DNA of 58,958 nt, the filler included, from Basidioascus undulatus (lineage: Eukaryota): assembly GCA_000826855.1 (NCBI GenBank). It is 5 parts of 5 records of this genome, joined end to end, with 100 filler letters (N's around TTAATTAATTAA, not from the genome) between each part and the next. Parts side by side here need not be neighbours in the genome. Positions count along the whole stretch, not along the records: positions 19,067 to 28,970 come from JTLS01001197.1; 4 more parts are not named here. One strand, written 5' to 3'. Below, one piece after another: positions 26,746 to 28,968 of the stretch. Made by a program: the position numbers and the translations under genes. Position 1 is the stretch's first letter; each line of letters opens with the position of its first letter. The notes beneath the pieces are model-generated. The model saw only the letters and a program-made list of their open reading frames with translations. It was not told the origin of the DNA and made no database searches.

Positions 26746-26757
26746 TTTTCAAAATCC
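26746..26757. terminator. Putative bidirectional 3'-end signal TTTTCAAAATCC (GGATTTTGAAAA on the minus strand)
   Basis: Starts immediately after the RPB2-like TAG and overlaps the capping-enzyme TGA; identical to the 12-mer at 21530-21541. Confidence 0.55.
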
Positions 26758-28968
26758 GCGGTTTCTCACAAGGTAGAGGTTATCCAGTATCGGGTCAACG
26801 TTCGGGTCCCACTGCCTGCCAGGCAGGACTGACGATGCCCGTTCCGCGTAGAGGGCCCCCGTAAGCTCGTGGGACAGCAGGGGCCTCTCCCTGATGGTCG
26901 TGGCACCTGGCCAACGGACAGTAGCAAGCCCGTCCCCTTCTATCTTCATGCTGACCCCTGAGCAGTCGACTAGAACGCCGTCACTGCCTGCGTCGTCGTA
27001 GAGGTAGCCGCACCCTATGACGCTTACCCCCCAGTCGGAGATGGCGGCCATCTCGTCGGCCACGTAAGTGACACTGAACGCGGCGACTGCTGCGGAGATC
27101 ATTCTCCTCACCCTCCTCGCTACCTCCCTGTCCTGCAGGAGTTCGGCTGCTGTGCACTCCAGCACTACATGACTGATGGACCCCTTCTGAAGTGCGCCGA
27201 GGGTACCGGTCAACGACGGGTCACCGAGCTTTGCGTGCACGACCCGCCTGCCTCCTCCTGTAAGCGCGCGCACTAACATCTGGGAGTTCTCCGGACTGGG
27301 CTCTACATGGAGGTACCGGACCGGACTCCTGCCCTTCGAGTCCAGGGAGGCGTACTGAGGCAGGGACTGACCCCTCCCTGCGCCGAGATCGAGAATCACT
27401 CGCGAACCACCCCGACCCGCTGCTGCTGAGTATATGACGCGCTTAAGCTCAGCGCACACGGCCTCCGCTCTACCAATGGCGAGGGGGTCACCTTCCTCGC
27501 CCGCCGCTGACTGGAGCACCGCAAGGCAGGCGGCCGCATCGTTCGCTAGCGCCTTGTCAGGCCTATGGAACACCTCGAGCACCTCCACGCTGGGGAGGCC
27601 ACCCCCACCTCCGCCGCGTGCCACTCTAACGCGCAGCTCCACAATGTCGCCTGTCTCAAAGGCAAGGTCTTCACTAACCTCCCTCACGAGAACGTGCCCG
27701 TCCTCAGTCTCGAGCTCGTATCGGCCATTGACCTTGAGCTCAATGGACTTGACATCCTTCACCTTCACGGTTATGCCTGTGTCCTGGGTCACCGCAACAA
27801 GCCCGTCGGTAGGGAACCCGCACTCCAGCGAATATCTCGTGGCCTCGGTGGCAGAGGGGAAGTACTCACGCACTAGCACGTCGATGCCCAGCTCGCCTAG
27901 TGACTCAAGTCTGTCCGCTAGCTTGCTGATCGGCCTACTTAAGGGAGCAAGGTTCCCTGAGGGCCCCATGAGAATGTCTATGAGGACGTACGTGCTGCTC
28001 GTCATGACCTCAAGATCAAGAGCGGGTCCCACGTTCGAGTACTCCTTGAATGCGCTACTGACCACGGAGCCTGTGACTTCCCACGTAGAGGTGCGCCTAG
28101 TGAAGAGCCATAGACATCCACACCTTATTGCAAGGAACCTCTCCCCGTCTGCCTTTGCAGTGAACAAGCAACCGGGTGGTACCCGTAGCACGTCTACGGC
28201 ACGGGGCATGAGTTGCCTGAGGGCAGACATATGTGCCGGCCTTACTTCACTCCTGAGCGTAGTGGGAGTGCCCAGCGATGACACCACACAGGCAAGTGCG
28301 TCCAGCACTCCCTTCTCTGTCCATCCTGCCCCGGATCTTATGGTAAGGTGAAGGGGGCGCCCACTCTTCGAGGTCCATACCGTAGAGTAGAGCCCGGTCT
28401 CAGGGAGCGCTAGTTCCACAGAGTACGCGACTACAGCACCTTCGCGTGCTTGGGGGTCCGCCGGCACCTCCCATTCCTCCCCCCGTACGAGCGTGACGTC
28501 AGGCGCTATGAGAGTGGTAGACCGAGCCAGGAGCCCACGCGCGTGGCTCCGGCTCCCTTCTTCAAGCAGGAAGGTGCACGGCCTCGCCAGCCCGTCTACT
28601 CTGACCTGCATCGTGAATGCGCTCACAGGCGTGCGCTTGCGGAGCTGCGCCGCCTGCTGTACTGCGGGGTGGCGGAGGTAGAAGCCCGTAAGCCTCAATG
28701 CGGTAGCCTTCGACGTAAGCTGAGGCACTGGAGGGGCTCTCAGGACTCTGCCTTGTAACGCCCTCAGCTTGGGTACTGGGAACCTTGACGGAGGTTGGAC
28801 TACCAGGCCTCTGCCCAGTGTCGACCCTACGGCAGCGGTTCTGTCGGTATCCAGGGGGCACGCTGTGCATATGCGTACCCGACGAGGCGGTTCGTCCGCT
28901 GACCTGGCTTGGTAGGTCACCACCTTCACGGGGGCCCCGCAGTATTCGCATAGGTCCTGAGGGGGCAT
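26749..28968 (-). CDS. mRNA capping enzyme (guanylyltransferase + SAM-dependent cap methyltransferase) with an N-terminal TFIIS-like zinc ribbon
   Basis: N-terminal CEYC...QARSADEP....CTAC. GTase motifs I KADGER, III LDLEV, IIIa YVLIDIL, IV TDGLV, V KVKD and VI RPDK..AN. MTase motif VILDLGAGRG. The ATG is 2 nt from the gap, so the ORF may extend further upstream. Confidence 0.9.
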   Translation of the reverse strand: MPPQDLCEYCGAPVKVVTYQARSADEPPRRVRICTACPLDTDRTAAVGSTLGRGLVVQPPSRFPVPKLRALQGRVLRAPPVPQLTSKATALRLTGFYLRHPAVQQAAQLRKRTPVSAFTMQVRVDGLARPCTFLLEEGSRSHARGLLARSTTLIAPDVTLVRGEEWEVPADPQAREGAVVAYSVELALPETGLYSTVWTSKSGRPLHLTIRSGAGWTEKGVLDALACVVSSLGTPTTLRSEVRPAHMSALRQLMPRAVDVLRVPPGCLFTAKADGERFLAIRCGCLWLFTRRTSTWEVTGSVVSSAFKEYSNVGPALDLEVMTSSTYVLIDILMGPSGNLAPLSRPISKLADRLESLGELGIDVLVREYFPSATEATRYSLECGFPTDGLVAVTQDTGITVKVKDVKSIELKVNGRYELETEDGHVLVREVSEDLAFETGDIVELRVRVARGGGGGGLPSVEVLEVFHRPDKALANDAAACLAVLQSAAGEEGDPLAIGRAEAVCAELKRVIYSAAAGRGGSRVILDLGAGRGQSLPQYASLDSKGRSPVRYLHVEPSPENSQMLVRALTGGGRRVVHAKLGDPSLTGTLGALQKGSISHVVLECTAAELLQDREVARRVRRMISAAVAAFSVTYVADEMAAISDWGVSVIGCGYLYDDAGSDGVLVDCSGVSMKIEGDGLATVRWPGATTIRERPLLSHELTGALYAERASSVLPGRQWDPNVDPILDNLYLVRNRGF

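Follow-up and report, generated by a model that had tools for sequence, protein, structure and literature searches.

A fusion of a TFIIS-type zinc ribbon and a predicted capping enzyme in putative virus-like DNA elements, mostly from fungal sequence data

Recruitment of capping enzymes takes several forms: it can proceed through CTD phosphorylation, through subunit contacts in poxviruses or, in baculoviruses, by making the enzyme a subunit. To our knowledge, TFIIS-like factors are elsewhere always separate proteins or polymerase subunits, the baculovirus and nudivirus protein LEF-4 has neither a methyltransferase domain nor a ribbon, and few DNA viruses have been described from fungi. In vaccinia virus, the capping enzyme is part of a complete polymerase complex (titles of entries 6rfl and 6rie). 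PMC2919709 lists LEF-4 as one of the four subunits of the baculovirus RNA polymerase, presents LEF-5 as a TFIIS-like protein with an invariant QxRxxDE which seems to be a transcription initiation factor, and places the hairpin aspartate and glutamate of TFIIS-like factors beside the catalytic metals. For the yeast VLEs, PMC6211774 reports that K2ORF3p is found in a core complex with the VLE RNA polymerase, and that this polymerase has no secondary-channel rim helices of the kind that bind TFIIS.

We analysed a gene from a Basidioascus undulatus assembly whose predicted product (P0001) consists, from N to C terminus, of a TFIIS-type zinc ribbon, a linker, a TTM fold, a guanylyltransferase and a cap N7-methyltransferase. 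A preliminary description of this DNA had reported a single frame joining ribbon, guanylyltransferase and methyltransferase, an architecture its reader did not recognise. The frame proved to be an intact 739-aa ORF with the motifs where they had been placed, and our literature search, which covered papers open without subscription, likewise found no published description of the ribbon-capping fusion or of the element family. Sequence comparison shows that a large, undescribed family, known mostly from fungal sequence data, has kept this fusion.

The locus and its neighbours

The window, that is, the whole stretch of 58,958 nucleotides analysed, is made of unrelated ~9.9-kb contigs chained by artificial N44-TTAATTAATTAA-N44 linkers. 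The P0001 gene is confined to its own contig (19067-28970), which one linker opens (18967-19066) and its twin closes (28971..29070) 2 nt upstream of the ATG. A DPPIV-like fragment (17691-18341) and an MFS-like fragment (50927-52057) were considered as flanking host genes and rejected, because the linkers place both on other contigs. The gene lies at 26749..28968 on the minus strand as one unbroken frame, with its ATG start and its stop codon inside these coordinates, and the AF2 model of the whole protein has a pLDDT of 89.8 and a pTM of 0.83.

The contig's six genes all have open frames and lie close together. Convergent with the capping gene is that of a compact RPB2-like RNA polymerase subunit (24250..26745, plus strand; 831 aa from the first ATG; Pfam RNA_pol_Rpb2_6, E 2e-16), the two stops being 3 nt apart. 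Four more compact genes occupy 19642..24197 and encode 298/293 aa (minus), 318 aa (plus), 531 aa (minus, with a weak UDG match) and 312 aa (minus). The order recurs on L001, a 32-kb metagenomic contig on which a ribbon-capping gene also adjoins an RPB2-like gene: five of the six genes are collinear, the RPB2-like proteins are 36% identical, and three of the four further genes have homologues in the same order. L001 carries in addition an RPB1-like gene (~655 aa) with the motif HADFDGD. These gene contents suggest that the P0001 element is virus-like dsDNA with a reduced two-barrel RNA polymerase, its RPB2-like half encoded next to the capping gene and its RPB1-like half represented in L001. 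That the element is a large DNA virus is not established by these data: contigs bearing relatives reach ~38 kb at most and their RNA polymerase is strongly reduced.

No second TFIIS-type ribbon was found, either on the 9.9-kb contig or in the 21.9 kb that were examined of L001. Every intergenic spacer of L001 contains a short palindrome, which could be a promoter element; over the whole window, a CAAC-N3-6-GTTG palindrome is not enriched (7 occurrences vs 3.3 expected). PHROGs gave no family for P0001 and, for 20 neighbouring proteins, RNase H and NADAR-like families only, while a search of viral contigs for related loci gave 16 pattern matches, none of them confirmed.

Domains of the fused protein

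The ribbon covers residues 7-37 (28858..28950, minus strand) with the layout C7-x2-C10, Q20-ARSADEP-27, C34-x2-C37, and its match to Pfam Zn_ribbon_TFIIS (PF01096) is a marginal pass (E 2.1e-4; 21.5 bits for a cut-off of 21). Its acidic hairpin, QARSADEP (residues 20-27; 28888..28911, minus), is conserved in aligned relatives and contains the invariant QxRxxDE as Q20-A-R22-S-A-D25-E26. When PDB sequences were searched with a 12-member profile, the full ribbon aligned to 1tfi, 4c2m_I, 6rfl_S and 3qt1_I; these matches cover the ribbons of TFIIS, RPA12, vaccinia Rpo30 and RPC10, with weak E-values of 0.05-0.7. The flexible linker that follows (residues 41-82; 28723..28848, minus) is below pLDDT 50 at residues 42-67 of the AF2 model, is unconserved in sequence and measures 33-72 residues among relatives (median 37). 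The alignment of 89 relatives thus sets the two segments apart, with selection on the catalytic hairpin and none on the linker.

Residues 83-232 (28273..28722, minus) adopt a triphosphate-tunnel (TTM/CYTH) fold in a domain-only model with a pLDDT of 87.2. Among 48,161 chains the best match was T. cruzi Cet1 (6l7v_A; Z 7.3, 132 residues aligned at 7.8 A); vaccinia D1 (4ckb_A, D1 residues 34-288) reached Z 7.2 over 141 residues at 4.2 A and the mimivirus triphosphatase (2qy2_A) Z 6.8 over 136 residues at 4.2 A. TTM/CYTH proteins made up most of the top 20, at middling Z values (<=7.3). This structural comparison agrees with one half of the earlier suggestion that the region between ribbon and guanylyltransferase is a degenerate triphosphatase: the fold is that of TTM enzymes and the ExE motifs are lost in P0001. 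The other half does not hold, since AYSVEL (181-186), read as a YxxExE-like end motif, does not line up with the end motif of TTM enzymes; in P0001 the strand at that position is RPLHLTIRS, which has no glutamates. The first and last tunnel strands, where ExE glutamates are absent in P0001, read LTSKATALRLTG and SKSGRPLHLTIRSGA. As both catalytic motifs are gone, the domain is probably a dead triphosphatase. Among the 89 relatives, ExE was found on the first strand in 23, on the last in 24 and on both in 22, P0091 among them. These calls are uncertain because they rest on a MAFFT alignment with low identity in this region; on this alignment, P0001 and most of its clade have lost the catalytic glutamates and kept the fold.

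The two downstream enzymes look complete. The guanylyltransferase, a nucleotidyltransferase plus OB unit assigned by its motifs and by Foldseek (residues 245-477; 27538..28236, minus), has motifs I, III, IV, V and VI: KADGER at residues 272-277 (28138-28155), E320, D388-G389, K402/K404 and R469-x-D471-K472. K272, D274, G275, E320, D388, G389 and K404 are invariant across the 89 sequences, and Foldseek matched P0001 to the PBCV-1 capping enzyme 1ckm with an E-value of 2.5e-8. The cap guanine-N7 methyltransferase (residues 495-739; 26752..27486, minus) carries the SAM motif ILDLGAGRGQ, with DLGAGRG at residues 527-533 and D527, G529, G531 and Q534 conserved in the family. VIA-align gave Z values of 16.4-17.6 with human RNMT, Ecm1, Abd1 and the C-terminal domains of vaccinia D1 and ASFV NP868R, aligning 208-216 residues at 3.3-3.6 A with RNMT, Ecm1, Abd1 and D1(545-844). 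P0001 retains all guanylyltransferase and methyltransferase catalytic residues that do not vary among its relatives.

Conservation of the fusion in relatives

The P0001 family comprises 168 cluster representatives at E<=1e-3, and the fusion recurs in assemblies made independently from metagenomes and from sequencing runs; 89 full-length relatives, 17-30% identical, were aligned. All four cysteines together with D25/E26 are retained in 79 of the 89, well beyond what chance would give; residue by residue, the hairpin keeps Q in 68, R22 in 81, and D25 and E26 each in 83. When only members with complete N-termini are counted, the cysteines and D25/E26 are invariant (76/76). All 11 word-indexed matches to P0001 are full length and have the ribbon. 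Rather than a peculiarity of this one sequence, the ribbon-capping fusion is the usual arrangement across at least a hundred clusters formed at 50% identity.

Pfam models recover the ribbon in part of the family: among 67 further members, 37 match PF01096 at E<=0.01 and 16 score above the gathering threshold (best 30.8 bits), while 13 match Baculo_LEF5_C at E<=0.01 and three others match Baculo_LEF5_C alone and not PF01096. In a divergent sub-group made up of 16 sequences, the ribbon is degenerate (R-x-G-x-DEP, final CxC) and was matched by none of the Pfam ribbon models; D25/E26 are kept there too, though the glutamine has changed and the last two cysteines are spaced differently. The ribbon is absent from six of the 89 relatives (P0045, P0050, P0074, P0076, P0085 and P0115); their smaller size (653-707 aa) could reflect truncated gene calls, but they may also be genuine ribbon-less forms.

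Proposed role and comparison with known systems

Taken together, we think it probable that P0001 is a capping enzyme of the poxvirus/ASFV type which, with its N-terminal ribbon, serves as a viral polymerase subunit supplying the transcript-cleavage finger. By analogy with baculovirus LEF-4, VLE K2ORF3p and vaccinia D1/D12, the enzyme would be stably bound in the RNA polymerase of the element as one of its subunits. Counting against this reading, the polymerase of the yeast VLEs, which may be related, lacks the rim helices to which TFIIS binds (PMC6211774). Its body would anchor the ribbon, a role that normally falls to TFIIS domain II or to the N-ribbon of RPA12/RPC11, and the linker of ~40 residues would let the ribbon get to the secondary channel, where D25/E26 might stimulate cleavage of backtracked RNA or help early transcription. 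The same body would guanylylate and then methylate the RNA 5' end; in the P0001 clade, the gamma-phosphate would be removed by another protein. From this arrangement we infer a possible coupling of proofreading and capping.

Other roles for the ribbon can be envisaged. It could be a docking peg only, which attaches to the polymerase, whether inside the pore or at another site, and recruits the capping enzyme with no stimulation of cleavage. Fusion through a flexible linker suits such a tether, and a polymerase as strongly reduced as this one (RPB1-like ~655 aa, RPB2-like ~831 aa) may be without the parts that factor-stimulated cleavage needs. D25/E26 are needless for binding alone, yet they persist in 83 of the 89 aligned relatives and in all 76 with complete N-termini, divergent sub-group included, and their equivalents in TFIIS-like factors sit beside catalytic metals (PMC2919709); this conservation argues for more than binding, and we regard a pure peg as rather unlikely. 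A role mainly at initiation, in which the fusion would load the capping enzyme at the promoter, would recall the apparent function of LEF-5 (same source) and that proposed for TFIIS in early transcription. The Baculo_LEF5_C matches and the possible promoter palindromes of L001 are in line with it, but matches of the ribbon to PF01096 are more frequent and stronger than those to LEF5_C, and we hold this role to be unlikely. A complex prediction combining the L001 RPB1-like protein (655 aa) with ribbon and linker (residues 1-62) of the L001 capping protein returned 0.00 twice, alignments being unused and the fold of the partner uncertain, and it favours neither side.

The sequencing runs bear on whether this copy, or the fusion itself, can be trusted. 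Contigs from two DNA runs span the gene without gap or difference, one from run X2 corresponding to 26760-28970; the assembly may itself derive from these runs, which would then not be independent. Logan contigs continue for at least 30 nt beyond 28970. The gene begins 2 nt from a contig end in a fragmented assembly, which could invite the idea that an indel or mis-assembly has joined two genes. Since the same fusion is conserved in relatives from independent assemblies, it is not an assembly artefact, and we give that idea almost no credence. Contigs of three DNA runs reveal many diverged copies at 90-99% identity (run X1 yields 57, 33 and 56 pieces in three identity bands), with places where a dissimilar sequence is joined on (24419, 25511, 27819 and 28686) and one 1.6-kb replacement variant; no RNA run is among those listed as containing the DNA. 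The window copy may thus be one of several diverged copies, and it could be non-functional, endogenised or decaying even with the architecture real in the family. Against decay stand the six open, tightly packed genes, the full set of catalytic residues, and a TpA/ApT of 1.06 on this contig vs 0.59-0.72 in the other five pieces, which speaks against a long stay in a host genome; we consider a decaying copy unlikely. RIP was examined as the cause of the differences in run X3, where 351 of 379 listed differences are transitions, and was rejected because transitions in the two directions occur at similar frequency (C>T 110, G>A 77, A>G 77, T>C 87).

If P0001 is indeed a polymerase subunit carrying its own cleavage finger, the conserved covalent link implies a fixed geometry between secondary channel and capping site, a relation that could be probed directly in so small a polymerase, with its few subunits. 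Within the family, the triphosphatase active site appears to have been lost step by step with the fold retained, and its members indicate that fungal sequence data contain an unnamed and widespread group of DNA elements. A broader reading, which we put forward only as a doubtful possibility, is that of a new lineage of ~30-38 kb dsDNA elements, Nucleocytoviricota-derived and mostly fungus-associated, standing between poxvirus-like viruses and killer-plasmid VLEs, in which cleavage factor and capping enzyme have become a single subunit of the polymerase and the triphosphatase step has passed to another protein. In that event, one polypeptide would span a minimal two-barrel polymerase from secondary channel to RNA exit, and rescue of backtracked early complexes would be physically tied to 5' capping. 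The elements may be relevant to how cytoplasmic killer plasmids arose.

The yeast and other fungal VLEs (pGKL2; capping enzyme K2ORF3p/YKP3, polymerase K2ORF6p/7p), likened here by their description in PMC6211774 and PMC13348850, are fungus-associated, AT-rich, compact dsDNA elements. Like the P0001 element, they supply a reduced RNA polymerase of multisubunit type and a capping enzyme of their own, the latter in their case physically bound to the polymerase. They differ in size, with 9-13 kb (up to ~26 kb, PMC13348850) vs contigs of up to 38 kb for relatives of P0001, and in having a single fused beta/beta' polypeptide where the RPB1-like and RPB2-like genes of the P0001 family are separate; the two papers make no mention of a TFIIS ribbon or zinc in the VLE capping enzyme.

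LEF-4 of baculoviruses and nudiviruses offers the parallel of a capping enzyme serving as one of the polymerase subunits, with fold matches to P0001 at E-values of 4e-12 to 8e-11. The Pfam LEF-4 model (PF05098) reaches 18.4 bits in P0001, below its 20.2 cut-off, over residues 383-427 in the guanylyltransferase motif IV-V region, and matches weakly in three of 12 family members. LEF-5 is a separate gene in baculoviruses, whereas the ribbon of P0001 is fused to the capping enzyme. TFIIS domain III, RPA12, RPC11, Rpo30 and LEF-5 all share with P0001 the CxxC, QxRxADE(P), CxxC ribbon; they carry it at the C terminus, while that of P0001 is N-terminal and is joined to an enzyme rather than to TFIIS domains I-II or a second ribbon.

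The closest overall likeness is to vaccinia D1 (with D12), ASFV NP868R and the pithovirus and marseillevirus enzymes, which have the same order of TTM fold, guanylyltransferase (NTase + OB) and N7-methyltransferase. Full-length Foldseek matched P0001 to D1 (4ckb_D, E 1.4e-19; also 6rie_O and 6rfl_O) and to pithovirus, marseillevirus, ASFV NP868R and entomopoxvirus capping enzymes (E 1e-23 to 1e-17). Searches of PDB sequences at E<=10 with P0001 (chance-level rows only) or the 12-member profile retrieved no capping enzyme, and the likeness to D1 and NP868R is at the fold level only, without detectable sequence homology. P0001 is also shorter (739 aa vs 844/868 in D1/NP868R) and, unlike these trifunctional enzymes, has lost the TTM catalytic glutamates; and where poxviruses keep the TFIIS ribbon as a separate subunit (Rpo30, 6rfl_S), P0001 has it fused to its N terminus.

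The ribbon-capping enzyme fusion

P0001, the protein in which a zinc ribbon is joined to a capping enzyme, is encoded by a single ORF of 739 codons with an ATG start (26749-28968, minus strand). Its ribbon (28858-28950, minus strand) arranges C7/C10 and C34/C37 around Q20-ARSADEP-27, KADGER occupies residues 272-277 (28138-28155, minus strand) and DLGAGRG residues 527-533; the coordinates that the preliminary description assigned to the frame and KADGER are borne out by these ORF and motif positions. In Pfam, Zn_ribbon_TFIIS matches residues 7-37 (E 2.1e-4, 21.5 bits against a cut-off of 21), and residues 383-427 give a sub-threshold match to LEF-4.

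A word-indexed search retrieved 11 relatives. They measure 729-754 aa, share 26-28% identity with P0001 across 96-99% of its length and all have the ribbon. Exhaustive HMMER searching of 1.84 billion representatives returned 168 cluster representatives at E<=1e-3, of which 119 reached E<=1e-10. The family alignment comprises 89 members 640-800 aa long. Its invariant residues include K272, D274, G275, E320, D388, G389, K404 and G529, and 79 members keep all four cysteines together with D25 and E26. Four of the ten exceptions begin within the ribbon and look like gene-call starts; the other six (653-707 aa) show no ribbon and may be either truncated calls or true ribbon-less forms. A second alignment, of members with complete N-termini, has the four cysteines and the DE pair invariant in 76/76. 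The linker that follows the ribbon is 33 to 72 residues long, with a median of 37, and presents no conserved column in the 89-member alignment. When 67 further members were scanned singly, 37 matched PF01096 at E<=0.01, 16 of them above its gathering score (top 30.8 bits), and in three more the baculovirus LEF-5 ribbon model was the sole match; the 16 most divergent members matched neither of these two models and retain R-x-G-x-DEP with three or four cysteines. A 12-member profile aligned the ribbon to TFIIS (1tfi), RPA12 (4c2m_I), vaccinia Rpo30 (6rfl_S) and an RPB9/RPC10 chimera (3qt1_I), with weak E-values (0.05-0.15). The fusion is genuine and conserved across the family.

Predicted fold and the domain preceding the guanylyltransferase

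The AlphaFold2 model built from the 89-row alignment (pLDDT 89.8, pTM 0.83) comprises the ribbon (residues 1-40), a disordered stretch (42-67), an eight-stranded beta domain (83-211) followed by a helix (218-232), a nucleotidyltransferase and OB module (about 245-470) and a Rossmann-type methyltransferase (495-739). Its top Foldseek match in the PDB is full-length vaccinia D1 (4ckb_D, E 1.4e-19), the D1 matches also including polymerase complexes 6rie_O and 6rfl_O, and PBCV-1 guanylyltransferase comes next. With VIA-align, residues 495-739 match the cap N7-methyltransferases RNMT, Ecm1 and Abd1 and the C-terminal domains of D1 and NP868R at Z 16.4-17.6. The best predicted viral structures are capping enzymes of pithovirus, marseillevirus, ASFV and entomopoxvirus (E 1e-23 to 1e-17), and LEF-4 proteins rank after these NCLDV-type enzymes (E about 1e-11). 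Sequence-level searches of solved structures with P0001 or the 12-member profile yielded no capping enzyme.

Residues 68-245, folded separately (pLDDT 87.2), were compared with 48,161 representative chains, with no Foldseek prefilter. The best matches were T. cruzi Cet1 (Z 7.3, 132 residues aligned, rmsd 7.8 A), vaccinia D1 residues 34-288 (Z 7.2, 141 residues, 4.2 A) and the mimivirus triphosphatase domain (Z 6.8, 136 residues, 4.2 A), then other triphosphate-tunnel (TTM)/CYTH proteins interspersed with Mediator Med18/20-type barrels; Foldseek matches to AtTTM3, Cet1, ygiF and D1 had E-values between 2e-3 and 3e-2. These fold scores are middling, and one fold dominates the match list. In the family alignment, whose TTM region is about 10-18% identical and may be imperfectly aligned, the catalytic glutamate motif ExE lies on the first strand in 23/89 members, on the last in 24/89 and on both in 22/89, and in ExE-bearing members RxR and K are found on the strands in between. 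P0001 has LTSKATALRLTG and RPLHLTIRS at the ExE strand positions. Since TTM folds dominate the matches and ExE is present in some relatives but not in P0001, the domain appears to descend from an active tunnel triphosphatase whose metal-binding glutamates were lost in P0001 and in 66/89 members. The earlier proposal of a degenerate triphosphatase at this place is thereby supported, at this low alignment identity; AYSVEL, which had been offered as the TTM end-motif clue, aligns with a different strand, so that clue does not hold.

The contig and its element family

Perfect 102-nt 'inverted repeats' in the window were rejected, as they correspond to N44-TTAATTAATTAA-N44 linkers, four of which were located by repeat scan (18967-19066, 28971-29070, 38970-39069 and 48966-49065); these are all-frame stop linkers. 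The window thus consists of contigs strung together and is not a single molecule. Pieces between linkers measure 9904, 9899 and 9896 bp, then at least 9893 bp for the last, a steady drop that would be expected of a length-sorted contig list; a lone N at 9051, without linker, would give a 9915-bp piece fitting the series. The P0001 gene is on its own 9904-bp contig (19067-28970), its ATG 2 nt from the contig end. This contig has a GC content of 60.6% and a TpA/ApT ratio of 1.06, against 0.59-0.72 in the five other pieces. Fragments matching DPPIV_N (17691-18341, plus strand, E 1.8e-17) and MFS/sugar transporters (50927-52057, plus strand), with CT-rich microsatellites beside such fragments (18374-18525), look like ordinary intron-bearing eukaryotic genes. 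Both are on other contigs of the chain and were rejected as host flanks, so no integration is evident anywhere in the window.

Contigs from three DNA sequencing runs, from which the assembly itself may derive, match the P0001 contig, exactly in two; a single run contig covers 26760-28970 and extends 30 nt further. Identity is 90-99% in many more run pieces, some of which cross into unlike sequence; therefore several diverged copies exist. In a variant contig of two runs (X1 and X3), 1599 nt (window 23155-24755), a stretch that takes in a 312-aa gene and where the RPB2-like gene begins, are swapped for 39 other letters that include a further GCGAC..GTCGC palindrome.

The convergent neighbour of the P0001 gene codes for a compact RPB2-like subunit (24250-26745, plus strand; Pfam Rpb2_6, E 2e-16). 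L001, a metagenome contig of 32,274 bp and 30% GC of which 21.9 kb were examined, has counterparts of the capping and RPB2-like genes together with three further homologues, all in matching order and orientation, so that five of six genes are collinear at 21-36% identity. It additionally codes for an RNase H, a NADAR protein and an RPB1-like protein with HADFDGD (~655 aa; 3625-5613, minus strand), its RPB2-like gene lying at 12260-14794 (minus strand; ~831-844 aa in the two contigs). Only the active-site regions of both subunits were recognised by Pfam and PDB sequence searches, and the predicted RNA polymerase of the family is very reduced. Neither the window's contig nor the 21.9 kb of L001 contains a second TFIIS-type ribbon. 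Relatives of the polymerase subunits occur on contigs that reach 35.8-38.4 kb in length; only a few bear names, and these come from Puccinia, Hirsutella, Linnemannia and Acidomyces assemblies, which places the family mainly in fungal sequence data, where its members may be episomes, insertions or contaminants.

A 531-aa protein (21549-23144, minus strand) has a weak, below cut-off match to the uracil-DNA-glycosylase superfamily (residues 51-209, E 0.0012) and about 300 residues without domain match; its L001 counterpart is 30% identical over 238 residues. Almost every short intergenic spacer of L001 holds a small palindrome (for instance 9914-9925, 9943-9954, 14811-14822 and 15800-15810), with CAAC-N3-6-GTTG occurring 13 times against 0.51 expected and CGAC-N3-6-GTCG five times against 0. 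Upstream of genes in the GC-rich window contig are similar palindromes, CAACTTCAGTTG, GCGAC..GTCGC and CAGC..GCTG (at 24222-24233 and in spacers around 20540-20570 and 23150-23200). They could serve the family as promoter or terminator signals.

Proposed mechanism and known systems

P0001 is probably a fixed subunit of the element's polymerase. This reading draws on three precedents: the four-subunit polymerase of baculoviruses includes LEF-4 (PMC2919709), the capping enzyme of yeast virus-like elements (VLEs) is in a core complex with the polymerase (PMC6211774), and vaccinia D1 belongs to the complete polymerase complex according to PDB entry titles. It draws also on the DE pair of TFIIS-like factors, which sits next to the catalytic metals (PMC2919709). 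The body of P0001 would cap the nascent 5' end while the tethered ribbon enters the secondary channel, where it would reactivate backtracked complexes or aid early transcription. The best evidence for this polymerase-subunit reading is the retention by selection of D25/E26 and the zinc ligands among sequences less than 20% identical, whereas the linker drifts freely. Removal of the gamma-phosphate would be left to some other factor in P0001's clade, where no candidate replacement was found.

A capping enzyme with an N-terminal ribbon was not found described in full-text literature searches, the excerpts available of the 2018 and 2026 VLE papers (PMC6211774, PMC13348850) make no mention of zinc or TFIIS ribbons in VLE capping enzymes, and the element family is apparently undescribed. 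Compared with known systems, P0001 consists of parts that are individually familiar, brought together in a combination, and with an N-terminal ribbon position, that appear new to the literature.
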